DNA of 41,573 nucleotides from an archaeon (GTDB taxonomy: Archaea > EX4484-52 > WAPT01), in the NCBI GenBank assembly GCA_029258795.1, contig JAPDKB010000006.1, forward strand, positions 1-41,573. The letters run 5' to 3'. The notes beneath the pieces are model-generated. The model was not told where the DNA came from. It saw only the letters and a list, made by a program, of their open reading frames with translations, and searched no databases. Below, one piece after another: positions 23,181 through 41,573 of this stretch. Position numbers and translations under genes: made by a program. Numbering within the stretch: position 1 is the stretch's first letter; every line of letters begins with the position of its first letter.

Positions 23181-24081
23181 AGAGAGAGGGGAGAGGGGGT
23201 TAGTTGAAATTATAAAAAAACTCTGGAAGGTAAAAAGTGAATGGGTTGAGGAGGGAATAGGAGACGACTGTGCAGTTTTAAAAAACGGGTTTATTTTCAC
23301 CATGGATTCCTTTGTTGAGGGAACCCATTTTTACTATGAGGTTTATCCTCCTCATGAGCTTGGATACATGACCCTTGCCGCATCCCTTTCCGACATCGCA
23401 GCAATGGCAGGGGAGCCCCTTTGTTTCTTTTTAACCCTCTGCCTGTGGAAGGACCTTCCTGAGGAGTGGGTTACAAATCTTCTGGATGGGATGCAGGAAC
23501 TTGCAGAGAAGTATTCATGTGAACTTGCAGGCGGTGAGACGGTTGCAGGGGATGAGATAGCAATAACCATTGGTGTTCTGGGAAGAGCGGAAAAGCCCGT
23601 AAGAAGAAAGGGAAGAAGGATAGGGGATTACGTTTACGTTACAGGAATTCCAGGGCGGTCATATCTTGGCAGGCTTGCACTTTATAATGAGATAGAGACA
23701 GAACTTGTGATGTGTCACTTAAGACCTGAACCCAGGATAAGGGAGGCGAGGATGCTTGTTGAGAGATACACGATAACATCAATGATTGATGTCTCAGATG
23801 GAGTCCTCATAGACCTTTCAAGGCTTGAGGGAGAGGGAGGAATTTATCTTGAAAGTTCCCTCTTCCCCACCGATCCCGAGATTGAGAGACTCTGCGATGT
23901 ATTCCTTGAAGACCCGGTGGATGTCTTCCTTCGCGGTGGAGAGGATTACGAACTGCTCTTTACCTCCCCTGATGAGATAGGGTTTCCATGGGTTAAAAAG
24001 ATAGGGGTTGTCAGGGAGGGAGAAGGTATTTATATTGATGATAAACCCACGGAGGTGAAGGGTTATGAGCACTTCTGTTGA
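23170..24081 (+). CDS. thiL: Thiamine-monophosphate kinase
   Basis: GIGDDCAV, FVEGTHF, LSDIAAMAGEP, MIDVSDG, GGEDYELLFT and terminal GYEHF. Confidence 0.95.
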   Translation: MRLEERGERGLVEIIKKLWKVKSEWVEEGIGDDCAVLKNGFIFTMDSFVEGTHFYYEVYPPHELGYMTLAASLSDIAAMAGEPLCFFLTLCLWKDLPEEWVTNLLDGMQELAEKYSCELAGGETVAGDEIAITIGVLGRAEKPVRRKGRRIGDYVYVTGIPGRSYLGRLALYNEIETELVMCHLRPEPRIREARMLVERYTITSMIDVSDGVLIDLSRLEGEGGIYLESSLFPTDPEIERLCDVFLEDPVDVFLRGGEDYELLFTSPDEIGFPWVKKIGVVREGEGIYIDDKPTEVKGYEHFC

Positions 24082-26662
24082 GTTTGTAAGACCCCATGAG
24101 AATATATTTGAGAAATTAGAATCCCTTGATTTATCCTTCAGGGATGCCGTGGTTTTCCCCAACGAGCGTTCAAGGTTCTACTTCAGGGAATTTTACCTGA
24201 AAAAGAAGGAGGGTGTTTTACCTTCCCTTTTTACCATGGAGGAATTTCTCTCATTTCTTTCCGGGAAGGTTCCCACAGACCAGGAGAACTCCCTTGGAAT
24301 ATTGATGGATATTCATCCCTCTGGTTCCTTTTCCATTTCCCTTGCCTACGCAGAGAAGTTGCTTGAATTTTTCAATGAAATAGATGCAGGGATGGTTGGA
24401 TGGGATGAGATAGAGTGGGTTGCCGAATACGAGCCCTGGAAGAGGTTCATGGATGAGGTGAGAAAGATATATGAGGAGTATAAAAACAGAATGAGGGAGA
24501 AGGAATGGGTGGATAAGGGGGATGTTTACAGGGAGGCAATCAAGGGGGTTGAGAAGGCAAGAAGACACTTTGAAAGAATAATCTTTGTTAACCCTCTTGC
24601 ACTCACGACTGCTGAGCGAAGAATAATCCGGTCCGTTCCATCCATCATACTCCTCCAGACCCTTGTGAGTGAGGAGGATAGGATTCCGGGAAGACCGTTT
24701 CACCATCACCACCGTTTGCTGAAGTATCTCGGGAAGGAGATTCCATCCTTTGAGTTTGAGGCGAGGGCAGCCATTGAGGTTTATGAGGGGGAGGACAGGC
24801 ACGGGCTTCTTTCCATGATGGAGCATGCACTTTTATGCGCAATGGATGCCAATATACCCCCTGAGAAGGTGGGGATTATCCTTCCTGACCCCTCCTATGC
24901 GAGGGTTATTTCCGAAAGGATAATGGAAAGGTATGGAATAAAGTGCAACCTCACGATGGGACTTCCATTCATGGAAACTCCTCTTTACAGTTTGCTGGAT
25001 ACGATTTTTACTCTTGTTGAGACCGAAAAGGATGGAAAGTTAAGGAAGGACGACCTTCTGGAACTCTTTTCCCATCCCTACTTCTACGCAAGAAAGGACC
25101 TGAAGGATAGAATAGAAAAGGTGAAAAAGAACCTGGAGGAGACGTACATTCCTCCGGATGCCATAGGTGACAGTATTCTTCAGTCCGAGGTTGTTTCCGT
25201 GCTTGATTGTGTAAGAAAAAAGAGGACCCTGCGCGAACTTTACGATGGGCTTCTTTCCTTAATAACCGTTCTTGAACGCGAACTTGAAATTCCTCCTGGG
25301 TATCCCCATGCCGATGGATTCAATGTTCTTACCCGTCATCTTGTGAGGGTTAAGGATACGGAACTCGGAAGGTTCAGCGTTGAGCAGGAAAAATCTTTTG
25401 AATTTTTAAGGGAAATCCTTTCAGGTTTGAGAATCCACAAGTTTGGTGAGCCCTTTAAGGGGGTCCAGATAATGGGTGTTCTTGAGTCAAGGCTTATACC
25501 ATTTGAGGTTGTTGTTGTTCCCCTGATGAACGAGGGATACTTCCCCTCACCCAGGAAAAAAGAACTCTTCCTTCCCGATGATGCAAGGGGGAGGATAAAT
25601 GAGCGTGCAGGAGAGGATAAACTTGAACTCCAGCGCCACCGGGATTCCACCTTTTCCTATTTCTTTCATGTATGGCTTTCCGGTGCAAAAAAACTTTACC
25701 TGGGATATGTGAAGGAGGAAAAGAAGAGCACACCGAGCAGGTTTGTTGAGCAGGTTACGCTCGGGCTTTATGGGGAGGAGGTGAAGCCTGTAAAGGTGGG
25801 TTATGAGGGAGGGGAGATAAAAAAGAGGGAGAGGTTTTTTGAGAGGAGGATAATAAATCCTGATGAGTTTGAATTTTCACCAACCCGCATAGACCTCTAC
25901 TTCCAGTGCCCGTACAGATTTTATCTTGAGTATGTTCTCGGGATAAGGGAGGAAAAGGAAGAGGAGGAGCTTGAGGGGAAAGGTCTTGGAAAACTCGTCC
26001 ATGAGACACTTCAGAGGTTTTATTCAGAGATAAGAGAGGGACCTCCTGAGGATGGAAAAAGGCTGTTTGAGATATTTGAGGAACTTTTCAGGAGGGATTA
26101 TCCCGTTCCATCTGGAAGAACACTTTTGAGAAAGGAACTTGTAAAAGAGAGACTCAGGATGTTTGTTGAGGAGGAGAAAAAGAGGAAGCCCTTTAAGGTT
26201 CTTATGCTGGAGAGGAGCATCACCACCCAAACGGGAAGGTTCAGGATTAAAGGGGTTGTGGACAGGGTGGATGAGGAGGATGGGAGGTTTGTGGTTATAG
26301 ATTACAAGACCGGTTATCAGGTTAAGACTCCCCTTTCCTTCACTCCGGATGACAGAGAGGATTTGAGGAACGGGAAAAGGAGTGTTCAGCTGGATACCTA
26401 TCTTTATCTTCTTTCAAAGAGGGGTGAGGTTGACCCGGATAGAACGGAGGTGAGGTTTTACAGTTTCAGGGAGAACAAATATCTTGAAAAGAGGTTTACA
26501 AAATATGGAAGTAAGAGGGAAGTGGAACTTTTTGAAGGGTTTTTGATTTCTGTTCTTGAGGAGATAGTGGATGAAAACAATCCCTTTGAACCAAACTATG
26601 AATCAAACCTCTGTGATTCCTGTCCATATGCTGCACTTTGCAGGAGGTGGGAGTATGTATAG
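24065..26662 (+). CDS. addB: AddB-type subunit (inactive helicase fold plus PD-(D/E)XK nuclease with Fe-S cysteines)
   Basis: VVFPNERS, GVQIMGVLESR, FSPTRI..YFQCPYRFY, GVVDRVD, VIDYKTG, QLDTY and CDSCPYAALC. Confidence 0.85.
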   Translation: MSTSVEFVRPHENIFEKLESLDLSFRDAVVFPNERSRFYFREFYLKKKEGVLPSLFTMEEFLSFLSGKVPTDQENSLGILMDIHPSGSFSISLAYAEKLLEFFNEIDAGMVGWDEIEWVAEYEPWKRFMDEVRKIYEEYKNRMREKEWVDKGDVYREAIKGVEKARRHFERIIFVNPLALTTAERRIIRSVPSIILLQTLVSEEDRIPGRPFHHHHRLLKYLGKEIPSFEFEARAAIEVYEGEDRHGLLSMMEHALLCAMDANIPPEKVGIILPDPSYARVISERIMERYGIKCNLTMGLPFMETPLYSLLDTIFTLVETEKDGKLRKDDLLELFSHPYFYARKDLKDRIEKVKKNLEETYIPPDAIGDSILQSEVVSVLDCVRKKRTLRELYDGLLSLITVLERELEIPPGYPHADGFNVLTRHLVRVKDTELGRFSVEQEKSFEFLREILSGLRIHKFGEPFKGVQIMGVLESRLIPFEVVVVPLMNEGYFPSPRKKELFLPDDARGRINERAGEDKLELQRHRDSTFSYFFHVWLSGAKKLYLGYVKEEKKSTPSRFVEQVTLGLYGEEVKPVKVGYEGGEIKKRERFFERRIINPDEFEFSPTRIDLYFQCPYRFYLEYVLGIREEKEEEELEGKGLGKLVHETLQRFYSEIREGPPEDGKRLFEIFEELFRRDYPVPSGRTLLRKELVKERLRMFVEEEKKRKPFKVLMLERSITTQTGRFRIKGVVDRVDEEDGRFVVIDYKTGYQVKTPLSFTPDDREDLRNGKRSVQLDTYLYLLSKRGEVDPDRTEVRFYSFRENKYLEKRFTKYGSKREVELFEGFLISVLEEIVDENNPFEPNYESNLCDSCPYAALCRRWEYV

Positions 26663-29150
26663 GATGGCATACGAGGCATCCGCAGGAGCAGGGAAAACCA
26701 GGATTTTGACCCAGAAGTATGTTGAGACCCTGAGAAAGATAAGGGAGCACTTCCCCATCCTGGCAATAACATTCACAAACGAGGCGGCAAATGAGATGAA
26801 GGAGAGGGTTGTGAGGATTTTGAAGGAGGAGGGGGAGGATGAACTTTTGAAAAAGGTTCTTGAGGAGTATTCTTTACTGAGAATACAGACAATAGATTCC
26901 TTTCTCACCCATGCCCTTGCCGTTTTTTCACTTGAGCAGGGTATCCCTCCGGGCTTTGATATAATGGTGGAAGAGGAGGGGGCAGAGGAGAAGCAGGCTT
27001 TGTGGGATGAGTTCTTTGAGGAGGTTTTTAATAATCCGGGGTTGAGGAACGAGGTTATGGAGATTGTGAGGAGGAAGGGGGAGGAGGGAGGAAGTTTCAG
27101 GGTGGATGGGGAGATAGAAAAGGCAGTTCACGGGATAATGGAGAAAGAAATATTCTTCGGGGATGGGGAGGAGATGCTCAGAAGAATTGAGCACTGTGAG
27201 TTTGAGGGGAAGGAGAGAGAGGTTATTTTGAGGATGCTTCCTTTTATGAGAATATACCTTGAATTTTCCAGAAGGTTCAGGGAAAGAAAGAAGGAGAAGA
27301 ATCTTGTTGATTTTAACGACATAGTGAAGTGGGTGAGAGAGATACTCAAAGAAGGGGAGATTCCTTATTTCTATTACCGAATAGGCGGGAAGATAGGGTA
27401 TGTTCTCATAGATGAGTTCCAGGATACATCCCGCCTCCAGTGGGAGGCGTTGAAACCCATAGTGGAGAATGTTCTTTCTGAGGGTGGGGGATTTCTTTAT
27501 GTTGGAGACCCGAAACAGGCAATCTACGGGTTCAGAGGAGGGGAGAGCAGGCTGTTTTACGAGGTGAAGGATGAATTTCCGCACGATATCAAACACGAAT
27601 TTCTGCCTGAAAATCACCGCTCACGGAAGGAAATAGTGGAGTTTCTGAACGAACTTACAGGATACTGGTTTGAGGGAACTGACCCCCAGATTCCCCGGAG
27701 GGGGGAGGGTGGATATGTGGAGATAAATCTGGAGGATATTCCACCTGAGGAATGGCTGGTTGAGAGGATAAAGAAGGTTCATGATGAGGGCATTCCGTAT
27801 TCCTCAATCATGTGTCTTCTGAGAAATCATTCCAAAATTCGCGAGATGAGTGCGGCTCTGAGAAAAGCAGGAATTCCATGTGTGAGTGGAAAGAGCGTTT
27901 CCATACTTGAGGAGCAGGCGGTAAAAGAAATCCTTGCGCTCTTAAAGGTTATCGTTGACCCGGAAGACCGAGTAAGTGAGTCTGTATTTCTGCATTCTCC
28001 CTTTGTTAAGGGTGGAGAAGATGCAGAGGATAGGATAAAAAAGGCAAGAGATATGGAGAAGGAGAGTTCCGTTTACAGGCTCATAAGCCGTGTGCTTGAG
28101 CTCCTGAATGCAGAGGAGGTCTATCCTGAGTCAGTTCCTGCCTTCCAGAGATTGCTTGAGGCTGCTCTTGATTTTGAAAAGAGCGGTGGTTCAACCACAA
28201 GAAGGTTTATTGAGTATCTTGAGTGGCATAGAGACAAATATACTCTTCCATCCTATGTGAAAAAAGAGGGTGTAAGGATGATGACCATGCACAGTGCAAA
28301 GGGACTTGAGGCAGATGTTGTTTTTGTTGTTTTACCCTGGAAAATGGGAGGGACTCAGGAGAGGATGAAGTATATAAAGGATGAGGATATCTTCTGGTAT
28401 GGAACCAGTGGGGACTGCAGAAGTTTATATGAAAGATGGAAAAAAGAGCAGCTCGAAGAGGAGAAGAGGGTATGGTATGTTGCCTTTTCAAGGGCTCGTG
28501 AAAGGCTTTATGTGAAGGGAATTTTTGATAAGTTGAGGAAAGACGGTAAAAAAATGCGGTGTCCTTTAGTGAACGACCTTCTTAAGGATTTCATGCAGGG
28601 TGAAAAAGTGAGGGTGTGGGGCAAGGAGGTTCCCATTGAGATAGAAAAACCTGAGGAGGAGATAGTTTCTTTCAGGATAAAAGAGGTAAAAAAAGGATAT
28701 GCCGGAAGGCTTGAGGTGAGGGATGACGAACTCCTTGAACCCTCGGTAGTTGAGCGTGAACTTGAGGGTGAAAGGATACATGAGGTTTTGAGGTTCTTTA
28801 CCTTCTTAGAGGATGAGAATCCTGAAGAACTTCCATCCTGTGTAAGGGAGGTTGTGGAAAAACCCGAGCTTTCCTTCATTTTCTCAAGGGAGGGGAGGGA
28901 GAAGAGAGTTTACAATGAAAAGGAGATCTGTTATAAGAAGGGTATTCTGCGTCCTGACAGGGTTGTGTGGGATGGCGAGAGGATTTATGTTGTTGATTAC
29001 AAGACAGGAAGCATATCGGATGAGGACCGCAAAACCCTTTCCCTTTACGGAGCCACCCTTTCTTCTCTCTTCCCCGACATGAAAGTCTCCCTCTACTTCC
29101 TCCACCTCCCATCAGGAGAACTTGAAGAGTTATCCAAGGAGGAGGAATGA
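26655..29150 (+). CDS. addA: AddA-type UvrD helicase with C-terminal RecB-family nuclease
   Basis: ASAGAGKT, AITFTNEAA, IDEFQDTS, VGDPKQAIYGFRG, TMHSAKGLE, YVAFSRA and RPDR...VVDYKTG. ATG 26655 follows GGAGGTGGGAG. Confidence 0.9.
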   Translation: MYRMAYEASAGAGKTRILTQKYVETLRKIREHFPILAITFTNEAANEMKERVVRILKEEGEDELLKKVLEEYSLLRIQTIDSFLTHALAVFSLEQGIPPGFDIMVEEEGAEEKQALWDEFFEEVFNNPGLRNEVMEIVRRKGEEGGSFRVDGEIEKAVHGIMEKEIFFGDGEEMLRRIEHCEFEGKEREVILRMLPFMRIYLEFSRRFRERKKEKNLVDFNDIVKWVREILKEGEIPYFYYRIGGKIGYVLIDEFQDTSRLQWEALKPIVENVLSEGGGFLYVGDPKQAIYGFRGGESRLFYEVKDEFPHDIKHEFLPENHRSRKEIVEFLNELTGYWFEGTDPQIPRRGEGGYVEINLEDIPPEEWLVERIKKVHDEGIPYSSIMCLLRNHSKIREMSAALRKAGIPCVSGKSVSILEEQAVKEILALLKVIVDPEDRVSESVFLHSPFVKGGEDAEDRIKKARDMEKESSVYRLISRVLELLNAEEVYPESVPAFQRLLEAALDFEKSGGSTTRRFIEYLEWHRDKYTLPSYVKKEGVRMMTMHSAKGLEADVVFVVLPWKMGGTQERMKYIKDEDIFWYGTSGDCRSLYERWKKEQLEEEKRVWYVAFSRARERLYVKGIFDKLRKDGKKMRCPLVNDLLKDFMQGEKVRVWGKEVPIEIEKPEEEIVSFRIKEVKKGYAGRLEVRDDELLEPSVVERELEGERIHEVLRFFTFLEDENPEELPSCVREVVEKPELSFIFSREGREKRVYNEKEICYKKGILRPDRVVWDGERIYVVDYKTGSISDEDRKTLSLYGATLSSLFPDMKVSLYFLHLPSGELEELSKEEE

Positions 29151-32948: not shown

Positions 32949-33319
32949 AAAAGATAATGATAATATCCATGGTTCTTTTTGTTATTGTTCTTTCTCTTTC
33001 CTTTCTTTTCTTTTATCTTCTTTTCTCCATAAAAGTGGAGGAAGAGATCGAGGTAAATGCTGAGGTTAAGGAAGGCAGATTCTGGTGTGAGATCCCTGAA
33101 ACATGGAGGTTAAAAGAAGGGGATACCCTGAGGGTTGAATGTGGGAATAAAATTTTGCGAGGAATGATAGTAAAAAAGAGAGAGGCTCAAACTTTAATCT
33201 CGGTTCCACTCCCTGATACTTCACTTTCCCTAATCCTGCATTCTTCCCCCTTTCCCATTGGTAAAAAAATATTCCTTCTCTACCTCCAGCGCCTTGGGCC
33301 TCGTAAGTATTCCAGATAG
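32945..33319 (+). CDS. Single-TM hypothetical protein, possibly a minimal HlyD-like accessory
   Basis: ATGA overlap with the ABC gene and GGAGG SD. N-terminal anchor followed by a short beta-rich domain. Confidence 0.55.
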   Translation: MKKIMIISMVLFVIVLSLSFLFFYLLFSIKVEEEIEVNAEVKEGRFWCEIPETWRLKEGDTLRVECGNKILRGMIVKKREAQTLISVPLPDTSLSLILHSSPFPIGKKIFLLYLQRLGPRKYSR

Positions 33320-33519
33320 ACCGTGCATACATGAATTACACAAGATTATTCGCCTATTAATTTGGGTTTTTCTCTATGTTTTGTCAGAAATTTTTCATTT
33401 TTTCCGTAAAAATTCGGGTGTTTGCCAAGAATTATTGATGATCTTCGAGATATATGTTTTTAACATGGTTTCATCTCCTTTCTTATTCATAGCCAAGTTT
33501 GTATGAATTGAGTTTTCCC

Positions 33520-33548
33520 TTGACAAAATACGACCTGCTTGTTATATT
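33520..33548 (+). promoter_or_regulatory. sigma70-type promoter of hsdM
   Basis: TTGACA, 17-nt spacer, TATATT with TGn extension. AGGAGG precedes ATG 33615. Confidence 0.75.
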
Positions 33549-33614
33549 TAGATAAGCATTAAGTATGTAAACTTATCTTTTTGGTGGGGGAAGCGCAGGT
33601 CAAGAAAGGAGGGA

Positions 33615-35375
33615 ATGATGCTGCCGAGATGGCTTGAAAGGAGGTATGGGGTTTTGTGGGAGGAGTTTGGGGAAAGGGAGTTCAGGTTTGAGGAGGCGAA
33701 GAGGGTGTTGCTGGAGCAAATGGAGGATGATGAGGAGCAGGTGAATGCCATCCTCAATGAACTCAAAAAGAGGGGGGTGCTGGAGGTAAAGGCGGACCCG
33801 GAGGATGCGAGGAAGAAGATTTACAGATTGAAGAGCAGGGAGAAAATAGTTTCTCAATTGCTTCTTTTCAATGAGGAGAAACTCACAAGGGGAGAACTGG
33901 AGGCACTTTTAAAGAGAGCCGCAGACTTGATAAGAACCAGAGTGGATTACACGTTCATACTCGTTCTCTTATTTTACAAAAGGATTTGCGACAAGTGGAA
34001 AAAGGAATACGAGGAGGCATACCGGGAGGCACTGCAGGATGGGTTGAGTAAAGAGGAGGCGGAAAAGGAGGCAAAAAGCACCGCATACCACGATTTTGAT
34101 ATTCCAGAAGAATATCTGTGGGATAACCTGAGAAAAAATCCTGCAGAACTGCCTGAGAGATTCTCCTCTGCAATGAAAGCCCTTGCCGAGAAAAATCCGG
34201 ACCTGAGGGATGTTTTTGAGAATATTGATTTTATACAGTTCACCCAGAGCAGGGAAAATGCGGAAATTTTGAGACAACTTGTGGAACTCTTCAGTTCCCG
34301 TTCCCTTCACAATGTCTCCCCCGATATCCTGGGGGATGCATACGAGTGGATACTCCGATACTTTGCACCACAGAAGGCAAAAGAGGGGGAGGTTTACACT
34401 CCAAGAGAGGTGATAAAACTCATGGTGGAAATCCTTGACCCCATTCCCCACGAAAGGGTTTACGACCCTGCATGTGGTTCAGGAGGAATGCTTATTGTCG
34501 CGTATAAGCACGTGGAGGAGGAGAGGGGAAAGAGCGAGGCGGACAAACTCTTTCTTTACGGTGAAGAGATAAACCCGAAGACCCTTGCACTGGCAAGAAT
34601 GAACCTTTATATACACGAGATAAAAAATGCACAGTTGAGGCAGGGGGATACACTCCTCCGCCCGAAGTTTAAAGAAAAGTTTGATGTTATCATCACAAAT
34701 CCACCCTGGAACCAGAAGGGATACGATGAAAAAACACTCAAAAAGGGAGAATTCTGGAAAGAAAGATTTAAATATGGATTCCCGGCAAAGCAGTCCGCAG
34801 ACTGGGCATGGATACAGCATCTCATAGCATCTGCGAAAGAGAAAGGAAGAATAGGGGTTGTGATTGACAACGGGGCGCTTTTCAGGGGAGGGAAGGAGAA
34901 GGTTATAAGAAGCGGGGTTATTGAGGATGACCTGATTGAATGCGTGGTACTGCTTCCTGAAAAACTCTTTTACAACACGGGAGCGCCGGGAGCGATAATA
35001 ATTTTAAACATGGACAAACCCGAAGAGAGAAGGAATAAAATCCTTTTCATAAACGCAAGCAGGGAATACGAACAGCATCCTGAGGTGAGGAAGTTAAACA
35101 GACTGGGGGATAAGCACATCGAAAAAATCGTTGAGGCATACCGGAAGTTTGCAGAGATTGAGGGATTTTCAAGACCTGTCCCTGTGGAGGAAATAAAGGA
35201 GAATGATTACAACCTCAACGTAACCCTCTACGTCTTCCCGGAAGAGGATGAAGAACCCATAGACGTTTCCTCCGAATGGAAGGAACTCCAGAAACTTGAG
35301 ACCGAACTTGAAAAACTGGAAGAAAAAATCAAAAACCACCTCCACGAACTGGAATACCTGAAAGATGAGGAATGA
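33615..35375 (+). CDS. hsdM: Type I restriction-modification methyltransferase subunit M with N-terminal winged-helix extension
   Basis: AADLIR, LGDAYEWIL, GEVYTPREV, YDPACGSGG, NPPW, GALFRGG, LPEKLFYNTG and DYNLNV. Confidence 0.95.
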   Translation: MMLPRWLERRYGVLWEEFGEREFRFEEAKRVLLEQMEDDEEQVNAILNELKKRGVLEVKADPEDARKKIYRLKSREKIVSQLLLFNEEKLTRGELEALLKRAADLIRTRVDYTFILVLLFYKRICDKWKKEYEEAYREALQDGLSKEEAEKEAKSTAYHDFDIPEEYLWDNLRKNPAELPERFSSAMKALAEKNPDLRDVFENIDFIQFTQSRENAEILRQLVELFSSRSLHNVSPDILGDAYEWILRYFAPQKAKEGEVYTPREVIKLMVEILDPIPHERVYDPACGSGGMLIVAYKHVEEERGKSEADKLFLYGEEINPKTLALARMNLYIHEIKNAQLRQGDTLLRPKFKEKFDVIITNPPWNQKGYDEKTLKKGEFWKERFKYGFPAKQSADWAWIQHLIASAKEKGRIGVVIDNGALFRGGKEKVIRSGVIEDDLIECVVLLPEKLFYNTGAPGAIIILNMDKPEERRNKILFINASREYEQHPEVRKLNRLGDKHIEKIVEAYRKFAEIEGFSRPVPVEEIKENDYNLNVTLYVFPEEDEEPIDVSSEWKELQKLETELEKLEEKIKNHLHELEYLKDEE

Positions 35376-35378
35376 AAA

Positions 35379-35421
35379 ATTAGGACTTGAAATACTAAAG
35401 ATTAGGATATAAGATACTAAT
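35379..35421. repeat. Two tandem 21-bp imperfect inverted repeats (probable operators)
   Basis: ATTAGGActtgaaATACTAAa (35379-35399) and ATTAGGAtataagATACTAAt (35401-35421), period 22 bp. Confidence 0.8.
35387..35415 (+). promoter_or_regulatory. sigma70-type promoter for a leaderless nucleotidyltransferase operon
   Basis: TTGAAA, 17-nt spacer, TAAGAT. ATG 35422 follows after a 6-nt gap with no SD. Confidence 0.7.
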
Positions 35422-36015
35422 ATGAAACTGGGTAAGGAGAATGTAGATAGAATATTTAAGGCACTTGAGAGGCAGATTGAAATCCACGGGGGAAAACCGG
35501 TCTCCCTTGTGGTTATAGGTGGAACTGCGCTTGTGGTTCAGGAAGTTACTTCCCGAACTACCAGGGATGTGGACATACTGGGAGAGGCGATTGAAAAAGA
35601 GGGAAGAGTAGAAATTCGGAAAATGGAGGAGATTCCCGAATTTTTGAAAAAGGCGGCGGCTGTGGTTCAGAGAGATTTTAATCTTCCGGAGAACTGGCTC
35701 AATACCGGTCCTGCATCTCAAATAGATCTTGGGCTGCCTCCAGGATTTGAATCAAGGCTTGTGAGAAAGAAGTACGGAGATTATCTCACGGTGTATTTTG
35801 CCTCCAGGATTGATCTTATACATTTCAAACTTTTCGCTGCTGTGGATAGGGGTGGATACCATGTTGAGGATTTAAAACTGCTCAATCCTTCAGAGGAAGA
35901 AATGGAACAGGCGGCAAGATGGGTTTTAACACATGATGTCTCTCCAGAATTTCGAGAAATTCTTAAACAATGTCTCAAGGAGTTGGGATATGGAAAAGTC
36001 ACTGAAAGAATTTAA
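35422..36015 (+). CDS. Pol-beta superfamily nucleotidyltransferase (AbiEii/DUF6036-like), putative toxin
   Basis: VVIGGTAL...SRTTRDVD (GG[T/S]...RxTxDxD), WLN, KLFA and a later DL. Confidence 0.85.
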   Translation: MKLGKENVDRIFKALERQIEIHGGKPVSLVVIGGTALVVQEVTSRTTRDVDILGEAIEKEGRVEIRKMEEIPEFLKKAAAVVQRDFNLPENWLNTGPASQIDLGLPPGFESRLVRKKYGDYLTVYFASRIDLIHFKLFAAVDRGGYHVEDLKLLNPSEEEMEQAARWVLTHDVSPEFREILKQCLKELGYGKVTERI

Positions 36016-36922
36016 ATCTCGCTTTATTGACCTTCTTCTGGAGGTCATGTGGAGGCAGTGGACGGCTCTCGGGATTGCCTCCCATGTGGAACCGGAGGAT
36101 AAGTGGTTGATAGACCCTGAGGCGCTTCTTTTTGGTGTGTTTTTTGTCCGTGATAGGGACAAAAGGCTTTTTGAGGCTGTGGAGGAGTGGGTTCGTGAAA
36201 ATCACAGGTTTATAAGCACCGCGCGAATGAAAAAAATAGAGAAAAGTATTTATGGCAGGGCTTTCAGGCATGATTTTATTAGGAAATGGGAAGATGCAAA
36301 GTATATTCGTTTATATTACACTCATGTTATATCCACACAGAGAGAAAATAAAGCAAAAGAAATTCTTGCCCCTGTTTCTCTCCTTCACCCCCCTCTTCTT
36401 CGTCTCCGGTTAAGAGAAATCTTGGGCCAAAATCCACGAGTGGAAATTCTCATATACTTCTTATACCATGATACCGGAAATTCTCTCTCCATTGCAAAGG
36501 AGGTTTTTCTTGACCAGAAGTCCGTTTATAATGTGCTTGAAGCCTGGGTAAAGGTGGGGATGCTTGAAAAGGTGGGAGGGAAGAAAAAGGGATATCGTAT
36601 AAATTCAGAGGCAAGAAAAACATGGTTAAAAATACTCGGGCTCAATAGACTTCCCTCCTATCTCAACTGGGGAAGGCTTTATATTTCACTCTCAATAATC
36701 CTCAAAGCCCTTGAAACTCCTCCATGGAATAAAGATGTTTATCTTCTTTCCTCTCTATTTCGTGATCTTTATGGTGAAATTAAGGAAACAGCAGGAGAGA
36801 TATCCACTCCCCCCTCACCTGAACTTTATCAGGGAGAGGAATTTTTTGAGCCTTTCTCCCGATACCTCATCGGACTTCTGGAAGGAATTATGGGAAAGAA
36901 GAAAAAGAGAGAAAAGATATGA
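35990..36922 (+). CDS. Unknown two-domain protein with a wHTH, putative antitoxin or regulator
   Basis: Overlaps the NTase gene by 26 nt. N-domain WRQWTALG...IDPEALL...DKRLF; wHTH-like segment RVEILIYF...SLSIAKEVFLDQKSVYNVLEAWVKVGML...KKGYRI. Confidence 0.7.
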   Translation: MEKSLKEFKSRFIDLLLEVMWRQWTALGIASHVEPEDKWLIDPEALLFGVFFVRDRDKRLFEAVEEWVRENHRFISTARMKKIEKSIYGRAFRHDFIRKWEDAKYIRLYYTHVISTQRENKAKEILAPVSLLHPPLLRLRLREILGQNPRVEILIYFLYHDTGNSLSIAKEVFLDQKSVYNVLEAWVKVGMLEKVGGKKKGYRINSEARKTWLKILGLNRLPSYLNWGRLYISLSIILKALETPPWNKDVYLLSSLFRDLYGEIKETAGEISTPPSPELYQGEEFFEPFSRYLIGLLEGIMGKKKKREKI

Positions 36923-36925
36923 ATG

Positions 36926-36995
36926 CTCTAAGTCAGACTTTCCTGACTTACAGAGGGAGAAACCTTTCTAAGTCAGAGAATCCTGACTTAGAGGG
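36926..36995. repeat. Tandem 40-bp-period repeat, each unit a palindrome TAAGTCAG-N6-CTGACTTA
   Basis: tcTAAGTCAGactttcCTGACTTAcagaggg and TCTAAGTCAGagaatcCTGACTTAGAggg, read directly. Confidence 0.9.
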
Positions 36996-37029
36996 AAAGA
37001 AAACTCTGTGGAAAAACTCATGGAAAGAC

Positions 37030-37058
37030 TTGAAAGAGGTGAGGCATTCTAATAAAAT
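37030..37058 (+). promoter_or_regulatory. sigma70-type promoter of the KAP NTPase operon
   Basis: TTGAAA, 17-nt spacer, TAAAAT, ending about 30 nt upstream of ATG 37088. Confidence 0.6.
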
Positions 37059-37087
37059 TAAAAAGAAAAGTTACTGGAAGGAAAGAG

Positions 37088-38950
37088 ATGGGTAAAGAGA
37101 ATAAAAAAGTCAGATTTCTTCATGATGTACCGATAGATAGGGATGAATTAGGAGTTCATTCTCGCCTTGCGAATGTACTGAAGGAGATGATAAAAGATGT
37201 GACAGATGATTCAAAAAGACGCTCTGGAAATAGGCTTAAAAATGTCATTGGGTTATTTGGCGTATGGGGTTCTGGAAAGTCAACGTTAATTAAGATATTG
37301 GAAAATAAAATAAAAAATAAAGGCAAAATTTTTGTATTCGATTCCTGGTCACATAAAGACGAGTTTATAAAGCGGGCTTTTCTTATCAATCTGGCAGAAT
37401 TTCTCCAATTAGGGGATATTTCTTTAAAGAAATTTTTAGAATTGCAGAAAGAAAATGAAGAAGATAAAGATATTACAGTAAAAAATTATTTAATCTCAAA
37501 AATTTCTCAACAGAAAATTACAAAAAAGAACGCCCCCAAAATTTCTATCTCGCTTTTCTTGGTAATTTCTTTATTGATACTTACTTCATTGAGTAATTTA
37601 TTAGCAAATCTATGTTCTTTTGCTACTCCTAAAACAATTACTGGCATAGAAGTAGGAGTTATAATAATAACATCTATAATTTTATATGGAATCTTCCGAA
37701 GAAAAAAAGAATGCTTTTCTTCTATAATTGCACCCTTTGTGTCAGGGACATTGGACGTTGAAACTTCACAAATTACTTCACAAACGATGGAATTCACAAA
37801 CTACGAGTTTCAGAGATTGTTTAAATTCTTGATTTCGGAATATTTTAAAAAAGAATCTTTGGACTCTCTAATCATTGTTTTTGATAATTTGGATAGGGTA
37901 GATGATGAAACAGTTTTAAAATTTCTTTCAATAATACATTCATTAGTAGAAAGTAAAAAAGAGAAAGATTTTGAAAATAAAATAGTTTTTATTGTGCCTA
38001 TCGATAAACAACGTCTTCTTTCCATTTTCAATAAGATGGCAACAGAAAATGAAAAATCTACATTTGCTGAAGACTTCGTGGAGAAAATGTTTCCTTATTC
38101 TGTTGAAATTCCCAATATAAAGCAGTCAAAATGGAGAGATTTCTTCAAAAATAAATTCAAAGAGGCCTTTTATGGTGTTAAAAGAAAGCATATGGATTTA
38201 GATTTAGAAGTCATTATTCGAATATTTCTTGCAGGAATTGAGGAAAGCAACGAAAATCTTACTCCCCGAGAAATTATATATTTCATCAATCATATAGTAT
38301 CAAATTATCTTTATTGGGGAAATAAGATAGATATAAAGCATCAAGCAACGTATGTGGCACTTTGTAAATACCAACCTCAAATAATATATGAACTGCAAAG
38401 GGGAGAGAGGAGTTTTATGGAGCACAATGAAATTATTAAAAAAGTGCTGGATTATACCTCTTCGGACGCTCTATTCAAAGATCTGCTTAAACAGATCTTC
38501 AAGACAGAAAGAGTACATAGTATTCTTTACAAAGATAAATGTGCTAAATATTTTGAGGAAGGGGATATTGAAAATGCGCGAAATTTGGTTTCCAAAATTG
38601 GGGATCCCTCTTCTATAAAAGAAATATGGGAAAGCGTATTAGAAGATGCAGAAGAAGGACTAAAATCTGATATAAGAATTTTGGGGAATATAGCCTATGT
38701 TTTCTCCGTGCTTTGTGAAGAAGAAAAGGTTTGTGGAGAAGCAAAGGAAGAAAACATATTACAGATATTGAGGAGCCGATTAAAAGAACTGATAAGAAAT
38801 AGAGAGGCAATATATACGAGTCTTGATGCAACGGCAGGAAAAGGAATAAAGTGGCTGCTATTAGCAGAAGAAGAGAAAAAAATAAAAATGTTGATAGCGA
38901 AGTTGTTAGATGCTTTTATAGAAGAAGCTGAAAGAAGGGAGGCGTCATGA
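37088..38950 (+). CDS. KAP family P-loop NTPase with two inserted TM helices and a helical C-terminal region
   Basis: DVPIDRDELG, Walker A IGLFGVWGSGKST, FDSW, two hydrophobic helices, Walker B IIVFDNLDRV, FVEKMF and LTPREI. Confidence 0.9.
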   Translation: MGKENKKVRFLHDVPIDRDELGVHSRLANVLKEMIKDVTDDSKRRSGNRLKNVIGLFGVWGSGKSTLIKILENKIKNKGKIFVFDSWSHKDEFIKRAFLINLAEFLQLGDISLKKFLELQKENEEDKDITVKNYLISKISQQKITKKNAPKISISLFLVISLLILTSLSNLLANLCSFATPKTITGIEVGVIIITSIILYGIFRRKKECFSSIIAPFVSGTLDVETSQITSQTMEFTNYEFQRLFKFLISEYFKKESLDSLIIVFDNLDRVDDETVLKFLSIIHSLVESKKEKDFENKIVFIVPIDKQRLLSIFNKMATENEKSTFAEDFVEKMFPYSVEIPNIKQSKWRDFFKNKFKEAFYGVKRKHMDLDLEVIIRIFLAGIEESNENLTPREIIYFINHIVSNYLYWGNKIDIKHQATYVALCKYQPQIIYELQRGERSFMEHNEIIKKVLDYTSSDALFKDLLKQIFKTERVHSILYKDKCAKYFEEGDIENARNLVSKIGDPSSIKEIWESVLEDAEEGLKSDIRILGNIAYVFSVLCEEEKVCGEAKEENILQILRSRLKELIRNREAIYTSLDATAGKGIKWLLLAEEEKKIKMLIAKLLDAFIEEAERREAS

Positions 38951-40710
38951 GTGAAAGATTTAAAAAAATGGCCGAGGGAATAAAAGAAATTTTAAGGGAT
39001 AAGGCATTACGAGATATTTTTAAGGATGTATTAAAAGAGAAGAGAAAAAACTTGGATGATACTGTATTTGAAAAAGTGTATAAGGAATTATACTCTACTT
39101 TGGAACTTCTCGGCGATGAAGATATCTTGAGTGAAATCTTTGATGAAGAAGTGGTGAGCCGGTTTATGGATATAGTGATTAAACGAGTAAAAAATACTAC
39201 TTTACAATCATCAGAGATTGATTTTATTGATGAATACGATACAAAAATTTTATGTAATGAAAAAATTATTGAAGGGAAGGATTTTCTGGCTAAGAAATAT
39301 GACCTTTTTATAGAGACTTTTAAATCATTTATTATAAAAGAGTTGATATCTAAGATTTTTACTCTGTCACAATCTCCTGGAGCGAAAAAGTTTATTACTA
39401 ATAAGCCATTACTTGAAATACTTTATTTTGTCACATTATACTTATATTCTTTAGACAAAGTAGATTTACTAAAGAAACACAAAAATCTATATGAGTATGT
39501 TTTATTTGAACATTTTATTCTTTCTAAAAGGCTAACAGATAATAAAATAGAAAACGATGTAGCAATAATTATTTCCATCTTGTGGATTTTGTTACATAAA
39601 GAAATCGACTTAAACTTAAATGGTAATGTGGATTTACGACAAGACGGATACAGAGAGCGTACAAGATTTTCTATAAAGGCATTGCTTTCTCAGATTTTTT
39701 CTAAAGTTTTGCGGATGGAAGAAGAAAAGATAATCTATTACCTGACAAAACTCGTTGATTTGAATCTCTTATATAAATTTCTTGATGGACTGGAAAAATT
39801 TGAAATTAATGAGGAGATTAAAGAAAAATTTGCAAGATGCACGATTACGGTTTTAGAAAATATCAATACACAAAGCGCCATTTCAGATAGCCATATAGAA
39901 ATTCTTACTGATTTTCATAAATTTTTCTATAGTAAAGCAAGAGAAAAATATGAGTCTTTATTAAAAGCACTATGCGATAATAATAAATATAAACCTGTTT
40001 TTGAAAAAATCATATTAAACAATTTATTAAAAGAAGATGTCGAAATATTATGGGAAGAATCCCTGCTATTCTTACTGCGAACGAGTATTGGAAATAATTT
40101 ATTAAGTACAAAAACAATGAGAAAAGAAATAATAAAATTTTTGCAGCAAAGGGTACAGGAAATAAAAGGTCTTTTTGATGAAGAAGAGGAGCATTACATC
40201 TATTTAGTGATACAGGAATTAATAAAGAACTACAATGAAAATTTAAATTTAACATTTACAGGTTTTGGTACAAAACTATTAAAATATATTGAAGATTTTG
40301 TTATGTCTAAAACTACCACCGAAATGTGGCCTATAGTGGAGTTTGTACTTTCACATTTGGAAAATATTTTCAGCTCAAAGGATATTGAAAACTTTATTCA
40401 CCAATTTTTGGGTTTAATAACAGAAAAGTTCGACTCTTTAAACATACAGAATGTGAAACAAATATTAGAAAAAATTCAAAAATATATTTCCCGAAAAATC
40501 CTACAGGAATATTTACAAAAATTAGGAAGAAAACTGATCGCCCAAGAATTTCCTCGGGAAGGAATCAGACTTTTTAGAAAACTATTAGAAATTGCAAAAA
40601 GATTTAAAGATACTATAAATCTAAGGGGAAACCTGAAAACTTATCTGCAAAATCACCCTGAGGATGAGGAATGTCATAAACTTCTAAATATGCTGGAGAA
40701 AAAATCATGA
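38947..40710 (+). CDS. 587-aa hypothetical protein, predicted all-helical
   Basis: Long open frame in very AT-rich DNA. GGAGG SD and ATGA overlaps at both ends. L/I/K/E-rich with no recognisable catalytic motif. Confidence 0.8.
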   Translation: MSERFKKMAEGIKEILRDKALRDIFKDVLKEKRKNLDDTVFEKVYKELYSTLELLGDEDILSEIFDEEVVSRFMDIVIKRVKNTTLQSSEIDFIDEYDTKILCNEKIIEGKDFLAKKYDLFIETFKSFIIKELISKIFTLSQSPGAKKFITNKPLLEILYFVTLYLYSLDKVDLLKKHKNLYEYVLFEHFILSKRLTDNKIENDVAIIISILWILLHKEIDLNLNGNVDLRQDGYRERTRFSIKALLSQIFSKVLRMEEEKIIYYLTKLVDLNLLYKFLDGLEKFEINEEIKEKFARCTITVLENINTQSAISDSHIEILTDFHKFFYSKAREKYESLLKALCDNNKYKPVFEKIILNNLLKEDVEILWEESLLFLLRTSIGNNLLSTKTMRKEIIKFLQQRVQEIKGLFDEEEEHYIYLVIQELIKNYNENLNLTFTGFGTKLLKYIEDFVMSKTTTEMWPIVEFVLSHLENIFSSKDIENFIHQFLGLITEKFDSLNIQNVKQILEKIQKYISRKILQEYLQKLGRKLIAQEFPREGIRLFRKLLEIAKRFKDTINLRGNLKTYLQNHPEDEECHKLLNMLEKKS

Positions 40711-41573
40711 GGAATATGAGATTTGGGCCTTGGGAAAAGATAAAATTAGGAAAAATAATAGAAATTGTGAAAGGGAAAAAAGTTCGTCTTGTCTCTTGTC
40801 AACAGAATTTCGTTACCATGCCATATCTTACAACAGAGTATTTAAGAACCGGAACCCCTAATCAGTTTGTATTAAATCCTGAAGAAGGAATTATTGTGGA
40901 AAAGAAAGATATACTGCTACTATGGGACGGTTCTAATGCTGGTGAGTTTTTCTTATTCTCGGGTGAAAAAGGCATCTTATCTTCTACAATGTGCAAACTG
41001 CTTATTAAAGAAAAAGTCGAAAAGTTGTTTTTTTACTATCTTTTGAAATTTTATGTAGAAGGACGTTTAAAGTTACAAACAAAAGGTACAGGTATTCCCC
41101 ATGTGGATCGTAATACTTTTATGGAAATTCTCATCCCCCTTCCTCCTCTCCCTGAGCAAAAGAAAATTGCGGAGATACTGGGGGATGTGGATGAGGCGAT
41201 TGAGAAGGTGGAGAAGATTATTGAGAAAACGGAAAGAATTAAAAAAGGATTGATGCGCGAACTCCTGACCCGTGGAACAGGACATAAAGAGTTTAAAAAG
41301 ACAGAAATAGGAACGATACCGAAGGAGTGGAAGGTGGTGAGATTGGGGGAGGTGATAACCGATATTCTTACGGGAGCCACTCCTTTACGAACTGAAAGGA
41401 AATATTGGGTGAATGGGAAAATCCCTTGGTTGACAAATAATGAAGTGGAAGACAACAAAATCAATTATATTTACGACACACGAGAGAAAATTACTGATAT
41501 TGCTTTAAAAGAAACAAATGTAAAACTCATTCCCGAAAACTCCTTAATTCTTTCTCTTACTGCTTCGGTAGGA
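40707..41573 (+). CDS. hsdS: Type I restriction-modification specificity subunit S (partial, runs off the window)
   Basis: Own translation from ATG 40707: MRNMRFGPWEKIKLG...DILLLWDGSNAGE...GTGIPHV...IPLPPLPEQKKIAEIL...KKGLMRELLTRG.GHKEFKKTEIGTIPKEWKVVRLGE...GATP. Absent from the ORF track. Confidence 0.93.
   Translation, partial: MRNMRFGPWEKIKLGKIIEIVKGKKVRLVSCQQNFVTMPYLTTEYLRTGTPNQFVLNPEEGIIVEKKDILLLWDGSNAGEFFLFSGEKGILSSTMCKLLIKEKVEKLFFYYLLKFYVEGRLKLQTKGTGIPHVDRNTFMEILIPLPPLPEQKKIAEILGDVDEAIEKVEKIIEKTERIKKGLMRELLTRGTGHKEFKKTEIGTIPKEWKVVRLGEVITDILTGATPLRTERKYWVNGKIPWLTNNEVEDNKINYIYDTREKITDIALKETNVKLIPENSLILSLTASVG

Follow-up and report, generated by a model that had tools for sequence, protein, structure and literature searches.

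What do the two overlapping genes that follow hsdM near one end of an archaeal contig encode, and do they form a unit of their own? The window analyzed here is the whole of contig JAPDKB010000006.1 (41,573 nt; assembly GCA_029258795.1; GTDB lineage EX4484-52, WAPT01), in which the genes for a nucleotidyltransferase (NTase) of 197 aa and a partner protein of 310 aa lie inside a Type I restriction-modification (R-M) operon with the plus-strand order hsdM, NTase, partner, KAP-family NTPase, 587-aa protein, and hsdS. Few toxin and defence effectors are as abundant as NTases of the MenT/AbiEii type, for which diverse antitoxin families are already known. A sequence-only reading had described the pair as an AbiE-like toxin-antitoxin (TA) or abortive-infection module in which the toxin gene comes first and the partner is atypical. 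We propose, with a probability of roughly 0.6, that the two genes form an autonomous, self-repressed, toxin-first MenT/AbiEii-like TA module, possibly acting in abortive infection, with a new antitoxin family.

Pairing, order and overlap of the two genes

Both genes are present as the sequence-only reading had described them, i.e., the NTase has the motifs GGTAL (residues 33 to 37) and RTTRDVD (residues 45 to 51), and the partner, the gene of which overlaps that of the NTase by 26 nt, has WRQWTALG (residues 21 to 28), IDPEALL (residues 41 to 47), and DKRLF (residues 57 to 61). Position 35379, which had been given as the start of the module, lies between genes, within the putative operator region; the NTase gene begins at 35422. 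For the partner, we used the start at 35990 rather than that of the longest open reading frame (35933..36922 on the plus strand, 329 aa), because homologues in an alignment start at M-x-x-S-L-x-E-F-K and because an ATG at this distance of exactly 26 nt from the NTase gene end is shared by 49 of 61 pairs.

To follow the pair across genomes, we used a scan with the partner (15 closer sequences) that gave 285 pattern matches and 261 relatives, of which the best 80 were kept, resulting in 79 loci from many phyla. At 73 of these 79 loci, a match to the NTase hidden Markov model was located directly upstream of the partner on the same strand, so that the claim that the two genes co-occur holds, as does their toxin-first order. 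Both genes were full-length at 60 loci, and the overlap was exactly 26 nt in 57 of these 60. A Shine-Dalgarno-like motif precedes the partner ATG in 15 of the 61 pairs, including the window (AAGGAG), and translation of the partner is likely coupled to that of the NTase. The pairwise identities of NTase and partner correlate (Mantel r of 0.84, with 0 of 999 permutations as high), and the NTase is the more conserved of the two, with a mean identity of 48% against 34% for the partner. Based on the NTase score, the size of the partner family, and the recurrence at 73 of 79 loci, the pairing is far beyond chance. The pair thus has one of the generic hallmarks of a TA system, namely two genes in a conserved and tightly linked operon whose genomic surroundings vary.

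Fused NTase-partner forms were seen neither in the partner-family search nor in a search for long NTase forms; the latter, which covered NTase forms of at least 346 aa and fusions and returned none, is weak evidence. We also considered a programmed +1 frameshift that would fuse both genes and rejected it, given that no fused forms were seen and that the partner has a separate conserved ATG. At one locus (L037, 5091-8460), two copies of the module are arranged on opposite strands, tail to tail, and one of the two NTases is truncated at its N terminus.

A MenT-type nucleotidyltransferase and a three-domain partner

Residues 25 to 150 of the NTase match DUF6036 (PF19502) with 40.5 bits against a cutoff of 23.6, making the protein a member of this family by the Pfam gathering test. 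We identified 177 homologues, and the 120 of these that are listed share 44 to 67% identity with the window protein (itself aside) and mostly match PF19502. The PADLOC model for AbiEii also detected the NTase (E = 6.7e-5), and the resemblance to AbiEii is confined to the N-terminal motif; similarly, hhalign aligned the NTase family profile with one true AbiEii (from locus L078) over motifs I and II only (E = 0.011). These two motifs of AbiEii/MenT proteins, GG/GS followed by (S/T)-x-D-x-D, are present in the NTase and align to the MenT1 motif; specifically, HMMER pairs the family profile RTTkDVDVL (RTTRDVDIL in the window) with RFTRDVDIV of MenT1. In an alignment of the 61 intact pairs, G33, G34, T47, D49, D51, K136, and D150 are invariant in all 61, and the spacing of K136 and D150 is similar to that of K137 and D152 (motifs III and IV) in MenT1, a similarity of spacing without residue-level superposition. 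By this sequence comparison, T47, D49, D51, K136, and D150 appear to parallel T39, D41, D43, K137, and D152 of MenT1. As reported in the available text of PMC10435456 and PMC11375011, D41, K137, and D152 are required for MenT1 toxicity, and T39 is the phosphoacceptor.

The predicted NTase model (predicted local distance difference test score [pLDDT] of 93; predicted template modeling score [pTM] of 0.88) had as its best fold matches in the PDB the NTase-like protein 5uvd, MenT1 (8an4/8an5), MenT3/TglT, JHP933, ANT(2'')-Ia, and LnuA. Among these, the model is closest to MenT1, though weakly (probability of 0.99, TM-scores of 0.47 to 0.49, 18 to 19% identity, E of about 0.03), while MenT3 was matched with E values of 0.1 to 0.6. 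From its motifs, the NTase is predicted to be a minimal MenT-type enzyme that lies outside PF08843, the AbiEii family, by the curated test. The earlier assignment of the NTase as AbiEii/MenT-like is therefore borne out by the motif set and the resemblance to MenT1, though the protein scores under the AbiEii cutoff.

The partner has no Pfam or NCBIfam family at the curated cutoffs, and its sole PADLOC match is to a CARF model (E = 0.014). Its best Pfam match is the TrmB winged helix (18.7 bits, under the cutoff), which is also matched by 14 of 41 partner-family members. Several comparisons argue that the partner is not an AbiEi. Thus, none of AbiEi_1, AbiEi_3, AbiEi_3_N, and AbiEi_4 matched the window partner at E ≤ 0.1, AbiEi families matched 0 of the 41 family members at E ≤ 0.01, hhalign of the partner against the verified AbiEi of L078 gave E = 0.37, and the list of 50 PDB fold matches to the partner does not include the AbiEi structure 6y8q, which has a winged helix at the N terminus and an antitoxin domain at the C terminus. 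The family is large; it comprises 2745 representatives at E ≤ 1e-3 and 948 at E ≤ 1e-30, and 113 homologues have a near-equal length.

The partner was modeled with a pLDDT of 91 and a pTM of 0.89, and the model suggests an N-terminal helical domain (residues 1-93), a variable low-confidence linker (residues 94-133), a winged helix (residues 134-205), and a C-terminal helical domain (residues 206-301). The winged helix expected from the sequence is thus present in the model, but it is central and not strictly in the C-terminal half as first placed. It matched AspA and ArsR in a PDB sequence profile search (E of about 4e-4) and AspA, MarR, and ArsR in the PDB fold search (TMt of 0.67 to 0.74). 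By contrast with the winged helix, the two helical domains had no structural match in the PDB or BFVD and no Pfam match, which agrees with the proposal that the N-terminal domain is unlike known domains; the matches to the partner in BFVD were of winged-helix size only, and the Atlas, searched via the 94%-identical homologue P0001, returned unnamed clusters and MarR-type winged-helix matches with a TM-score of about 0.3. Conservation peaks in the N-terminal domain (W21, W24, G28, D42, E44, R59, W67, and R79) and in the first helix of the winged helix, and no variation was seen across all 61 pairs at W21, W24, G28, D42, R59, W67, R142, and G146. Together, the models and searches describe a protein other than AbiEi, with a predicted central winged helix flanked by helical domains that lack a known match.

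Some long homologues of the partner (P0246, P0310, P0029, and P0030) have a C-terminal region matching DUF5677, Schlafen AlbA_2, or, weakly, a Cas4-like PD-(D/E)xK nuclease; these long forms may be true fusions or merged gene calls. At locus L005, a separate AlbA_2/HATPase_c_4 protein is encoded two genes downstream of the pair.

Comparison with known systems places the pair next to MenAT1 and AbiE. In MenAT1 (MenA1/MenT1, Rv0078B/Rv0078A), the menA1 gene lies upstream of menT1. Like the window pair, MenAT1 is a two-gene module of an NTase and an unrelated antitoxin, the NTases have nearly the same length (196 aa for MenT1, 197 aa in the window) and share T-x-D-x-D (RFTRDVD in MenT1, RTTRDVD in the window), with a conserved Lys and Asp in comparable places (K137/D152 in MenT1, K136/D150 in the window), and the fold search has MenT1 among its top hits; beyond motifs I and II, however, the sequences of the two NTases show no significant similarity. 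According to the accessible part of PMC10435456, MenA1 is a protein of 68 aa from a family unrelated to the other MenA antitoxins, whereas the window partner has 310 aa and three domains, including the winged helix, and is encoded downstream with the 26-nt overlap. AbiE systems (AbiEi/AbiEii; DUF1814/COG2253 and COG5340; Type IV, proposed Type VII TA, or abortive infection) resemble the pair in being bicistronic operons for an NTase effector and a winged-helix partner that are frequent in defence contexts and in which the partner is expected to autoregulate through promoter repeats. They differ in that the window NTase is about 100 to 150 aa shorter than a typical AbiEii and under the cutoff for PF08843, that the window partner has no AbiEi domain and a central rather than N-terminal winged helix, and that the gene order is reversed.

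The reversed order as such stands, but it is not unique to this pair. In RlegTA, one of the RlegTA/SanaTA/SdenTA systems with DUF1814-superfamily toxins, the antitoxin RlegA is encoded downstream of RlegT, as described in the available text of a preprint (10.64898/2026.01.19.700257), which gives the toxin-first order a precedent; the same text reports that some of these systems protect against phage T7. Unlike the window partner, their antitoxins are AbiEi-like and have 136 to 205 aa, and the window partner is unrelated to them in sequence and, outside the winged helix, in predicted fold. Our literature searches found no mention of DUF6036 by name and, on DUF1814 gene order, no description of the NTase-partner pair among the papers listed. 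What is new here is that the DUF6036 branch is paired with a partner of three domains that is large, unnamed, and novel in structure; the fixed 26-nt overlap and the conserved, predicted leaderless promoter with its putative operator are likewise new. In line with the original proposal, the likeness of the NTase, the non-AbiEi partner, and the fixed order support that the pair is a distinct family of the AbiE/MenAT-like kind.

Promoter, putative operators, gene decay and proposed mechanism

Upstream of the NTase gene, we identified a promoter with twin dyads as putative operators, which the sequence-only reading did not describe. The 46 nt that separate the hsdM stop codon from the NTase ATG contain two copies of TTAGGA-N7-TACTAA, 22 nt apart. 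These two are the only matches to the pattern in the window; specifically, no copy was found upstream of hsdM or the KAP gene, which gives no indication that either hsdM or the KAP block is under the control of the partner. A promoter scan detected TTGAAA and TAAGAT at a spacing of 17 nt (9 of 12 matches), with the -35 hexamer inside the upstream dyad, O1, and the -10 hexamer inside the downstream dyad, O2; relatives have TTGACA at the position aligned to TTGAAA. Only 6 nt lie between the -10 hexamer and the ATG, too few for a leader or a Shine-Dalgarno sequence, and the mRNA is predicted to be leaderless.

The layout of promoter and two dyads is conserved in 21 loci, and 20 related loci align with the consensus ATTAGGACTTGAnAnCCTAATnATTAGGnnTTAAAATCCTAAnTATG. 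In three loci, both half-sites are altered together (TTAGTA and TACTAA), and distant clades have other, longer palindromes that stop just before the ATG. Inverted repeats with a score of at least 7 were found in 25 of 59 upstream regions, as compared with 30 of 295 shuffled sequences and with 1 of 59 in-gene and 2 of 54 far-upstream controls. Autoregulation through inverted repeats is described for AbiEi and MenA antitoxins in the part of PMC7319586 available to us. From these data, we infer a leaderless, self-repressed operon, the operators of which would be read by the winged helix of the partner.

The loci at which one of the genes has decayed bear on the direction of the roles. At 16 of the 79 loci, the partner is full-length, but the NTase is partial (8 loci), split (3 loci), or absent (5 loci). 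Three of the eight partial NTases (L019, L053, and L068) are merely shortened at the C terminus, and setting these three aside leaves 13 loci with an intact partner and a degraded or missing NTase. Conversely, the partner is split at 1 locus only, and the NTase of that locus is not intact either; a further 2 loci are truncated by the ends of their contigs. At none of the 79 loci did we find a broken partner with an intact NTase. This asymmetry is as expected if the NTase is harmful and the partner its antidote, and it favors the NTase as the toxin in a manner that is suggestive but not decisive.

The same pattern speaks against inverted roles, in which the partner would be a toxin neutralized by nucleotidylation by the upstream NTase, as had been considered by analogy to HEPN-MNT systems. 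In these type VII TA systems, the minimal NTase gene is first in the two-gene operon, as in the window, and in the partner the conserved polar set of D42, E44, R59, and R79 in the N-terminal domain could be an active site. However, in HEPN-MNT systems the NTase is the antitoxin and its partner a HEPN RNase, whereas neither the window partner nor the 41 family members matched HEPN or NTase_sub_bind, no other toxin domain was matched by the partner, and its alignment has no invariant His and hence none for an Rx4-6H motif. In addition, the partner has a winged helix of the DNA-binding type with operators to match, the NTase has MenT-type motifs and resembles toxin NTases such as MenT1, including the phosphoacceptor Thr, and the partner persists in full length at those 16 loci, which should not be tolerated if it were a free toxin. 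We therefore regard inverted roles as highly improbable.

Locus L078 (3837-6838) has a canonical AbiEi (AbiEi_3 and AbiEi_3_N)-AbiEii pair directly upstream of an orphan partner homologue, and between them we noted by eye an apparent C-terminal remnant of a DUF6036 gene. We considered and rejected this locus as proof that the partner pairs with canonical AbiEii, as the AbiEi-AbiEii pair is complete and is followed by the apparent DUF6036 remnant before the partner. Two NTase-type systems are stacked at this single site.

Several observations weigh against the proposed TA module. Concerning the NTase, its score for the AbiEii family PF08843 is 15.6 bits with a cutoff of 22.5 and covers residues 28 to 84 only, no PDB fold match reached E ≤ 1e-3 and all query-normalized TM-scores were <0.5, and a profile search of PDB sequences had no significant match (E of 0.43 to 0.88). 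Concerning the operators, the dyads in the window are imperfect, with 5 of 6 positions matching per half-site pair, and its best inverted-repeat score is only 5. The decay asymmetry is biased, since the partner served both to recruit the loci and to rank them, and only the top 80 of 261 relatives were retained; in addition, the three C-terminally shortened NTases may be working variants. Shared host ancestry alone can yield the Mantel correlation. Lastly, tblastn searches with the NTase and the partner had no match in plasmid and phage collections, and mobility typical of TA systems is visible solely through the variable chromosomal contexts.

The antibiotic NTases among the fold matches also count against a toxin, and they raise the alternative of a regulated, non-toxic enzyme, in which the NTase would nucleotidylate an antibiotic or metabolite and the partner would be a ligand-sensing winged-helix repressor with inducer-binding helical domains, without any TA function. 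Consistent with this alternative, ANT(2'')-Ia (TMt up to 0.52) and LnuA were matched, the MenT-type assignment is based on weak scores, and inducible operons for resistance or catabolism are typically laid out in this way, with a repressor that has large extra domains, a neighboring enzyme gene, and operators that cover the promoter. Against it, the invariant T-x-D-x-D, K, and D set fits the MenT/AbiEii pattern, the ANT enzymes come after MenT1 in the fold-search ranking, and the pair recurs in Type I R-M operons and near genes for PemK, ParE, Fic, Abi_2, RhuM, ORF6N, and AbiE. Moreover, the fixed 26-nt overlap suggests coupled, stoichiometric synthesis, and the frequent decay of the NTase while the "regulator" stays intact would be odd if the enzyme were useful cargo. 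On balance, we consider a non-toxic enzyme unlikely.

Returning to the TA module, we combined what was directly observed, i.e., the anatomy of the module, the assignments to families, the constant pairing and overlap, the conservation of promoter and operator, and the NTase decay pattern, into a mechanism of which we infer all biochemical steps by analogy, including the toxicity, tRNA targeting, and phosphorylation of the NTase. Transcription from the sigma-70-type promoter would start at the A of the NTase ATG or right beside it and give a leaderless mRNA. Translation of the partner would begin at its ATG within the NTase gene, 26 nt from the end of the latter, so that both proteins would be made together. 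The central winged helix of a partner dimer would bind the two dyads over the -35 and -10 elements and repress the operon, while the novel helical domains would bind the NTase and hold it inactive. This inactivation could perhaps occur by auto-phosphorylation of T47, which precedes the putative D49-x-D51 metal site, in analogy to MenA1/MenT1, MenA3/MenT3, and AbiEi/AbiEii; antitoxin-induced auto-phosphorylation is described for the two MenA/MenT pairs in the available text of PMC11375011 and for AbiEi/AbiEii in that of the preprint 10.64898/2026.01.19.700257. Upon loss or displacement of the partner by phage infection, element loss, or stress, the NTase would add nucleotides to tRNA 3' ends, and translation would stop. 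The position between hsdM and hsdS would be a preferred insertion site for defence cargo with no obligate functional tie.

A more far-reaching version of this mechanism, which we hold to be doubtful, is that the partner is a three-domain sensor-antitoxin of a new kind. Here, an N-terminal pocket formed by the eight conserved residues W21, W24, G28, D42, E44, R59, W67, and R79 would engage the NTase active site and drive auto-phosphorylation of T47, the partner would repress the leaderless operon via the twin dyads, and a phage or anti-restriction factor would displace it and free a tRNA-modifying toxin. The pair would then be a widespread, unnamed abortive-infection system of about 2700 clusters in many phyla, and it would serve preferentially as a backup to Type I R-M systems.

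If the proposed TA module is correct, a large, phylogenetically broad, and so far uncharacterized DUF6036 branch with a fourth, structurally novel antitoxin family would be added to the NTase toxins, and both DUF6036 and an unnamed family of about 2700 clusters would gain a function, giving defence-finder tools a new detectable system. Its compact regulatory design of leaderless toxin mRNA, fixed 26-nt overlap, and twin operators would be easy to test, and the module would be a probe of whether antitoxin-induced auto-phosphorylation is general across NTase toxins.

Genomic context and the restriction-modification locus

The location of the pair in the window had suggested that it might guard the R-M system. 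Such a guard, acting like PrrC, would be an added layer in which the pair senses inhibition of HsdMS by phage anti-restriction proteins and then frees the NTase. A homologue of hsdM or hsdS was detected by phmmer within about 6 kb at 19 of the 79 loci, usually in the order hsdM-pair-hsdS on one strand as in the window, and defence genes embedded in Type I R-M operons are documented in the available text on DarTG2 (PMC12255303) and PrrC (preprint 10.1101/2024.01.29.577857). PrrC and DarTG2 (of the RRDM island of enteropathogenic Escherichia coli [EPEC]) are described there as TA or abortive-infection cassettes inserted between hsd genes, and the window pair resembles them in this position. However, DarTG2 is located between hsdS and hsdR, and its island is controlled by the small repressor RptR, whereas the window cassette lies between hsdM and hsdS, has a putative repressor with operators of its own, and at most loci occurs away from R-M operons. 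Indeed, the remaining 60 loci have no hsdM or hsdS homologue within that distance, so that the pair is far from exclusive to hsd operons, and many pairs lie between housekeeping genes. Furthermore, the pair keeps its own promoter and operator even when embedded, and neither hsdM nor the KAP gene is preceded by an operator copy.

A Pfam scan of 139 immediate neighbors identified HsdM directly upstream of the pair in 11 loci and directly downstream in 1 more (L061), and HsdS directly downstream in 11. Other neighbors were PemK, ParE, ORF6N, Fic, RhuM, Abi_2, KilA-N, YhcG nuclease, an integrase, an IS200 transposase, and AbiE genes, as well as proteins with housekeeping functions (e.g., GDP-mannose dehydratase with Hsp33, cysteine desulfurase, and BamA). 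Relatives of the KAP gene or the 587-aa gene were found at 0 of the 79 loci. In the window, the GC content is 0.42 to 0.47 for hsdM and the pair (33615-37000) and 0.28 to 0.33 for the KAP gene, the 587-aa gene, and hsdS (about 37000-41573), which suggests that hsdM and hsdS of one operon differ in history. A cassette may have been exchanged at the specificity end, which speaks against the R-M system being a co-adapted unit. Taken together, the pair is mobile cargo that often lands in the hsdM-hsdS gap, where embedded defence genes are known, and is not an obligate R-M accessory, and a guarding role is improbable. The features of the locus are listed in Table 1.

Table 1. Features of the NTase-partner locus in the 41,573-nt window
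Feature	Position	Strand	Basis or remark
DUF6036 nucleotidyltransferase (putative toxin), 197 aa	35422..36015	+	Pfam PF19502
NTase key residues	G33 G34, T47 (35560-35562), D49, D51, K136 (35827-35829), D150 (35869-35871)		
Partner protein (putative antitoxin and autorepressor), 310 aa	35990..36922	+	Undescribed family
NTase/partner gene overlap, 26 nt	35990..36015	+	Shared by most intact pairs
AAGGAG, Shine-Dalgarno-like, just 5' of partner ATG	35976-35981	+	
Partner N-terminal helical domain (predicted), residues 1-93	35990..36268	+	Model and alignment
Partner winged helix-turn-helix (predicted), residues 134-205	36389..36604	+	TrmB/AspA/ArsR/MarR resemblance
Partner C-terminal helical domain (predicted), residues 206-301	36605..36892	+	Model
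Operator dyad O1, TTAGGA-N7-TACTAA, spans -35 element	35380..35398	+	Pattern search, aligned loci
-35-like hexamer TTGAAA	35387..35392	+	Promoter scan
Operator dyad O2, TTAGGA-N7-TACTAA, spans -10, stops 1 nt before ATG	35402..35420	+	
-10-like hexamer TAAGAT, 6 nt before ATG	35410..35415	+	Promoter scan
hsdM (Type I R-M methyltransferase), directly upstream	33615..35375	+	N6_Mtase 1.2e-114, HsdM_N 6e-17
KAP-family P-loop NTPase, 620 aa	37088-38950	+	Outside module
587-aa protein without family	38947-40710	+	Outside module
hsdS	40707 to window end (41573)	+	Outside module

Downstream of the pair, the KAP NTPase has weak PifA and QatA matches, and the 587-aa protein has no match in Pfam, NCBIfam, or PADLOC. 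The genes for the two proteins overlap by 4 nt, as do the 587-aa gene and hsdS, and the KAP and 587-aa genes could be a second, unrelated two-gene cargo in the same R-M operon and a candidate defence pair. Right after the partner stop codon, at 36929-36990, there are two tandem hairpins, TAAGTCAGA-N3-TCCTGACTTA, 40 nt apart (-36.5 kcal/mol; z of -5.3 versus shuffles), which are unique in the window and located at the boundary of the GC drop; a role as terminator or insulator, or an origin as a recombination scar, is conceivable. An Rfam scan of 33300-37300 returned nothing near any gathering score. A strong match to a sigma-70-like promoter is found 5' of hsdM at 33520-33548 (TTGACA, 17 nt, TATATT, with an extended TG; 11 of 12 matches), and a further promoter match (10 of 12) is found 5' of the KAP gene at 37030-37058, so that the region may comprise three transcription units.

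A few kb upstream of the R-M island, at 24065-29150, the window encodes an AddB-like PD-(D/E)xK nuclease (865 aa) and a UvrD/AddA-like helicase (859 aa), which are ordinary recombination and repair machinery. Besides this AddAB-like pair, the remaining genes in the window, which are those of an ordinary diderm bacterial chromosome, are for glycosyltransferases, PilMNO and a secretin, FtsK, alanine racemase, and LptD.

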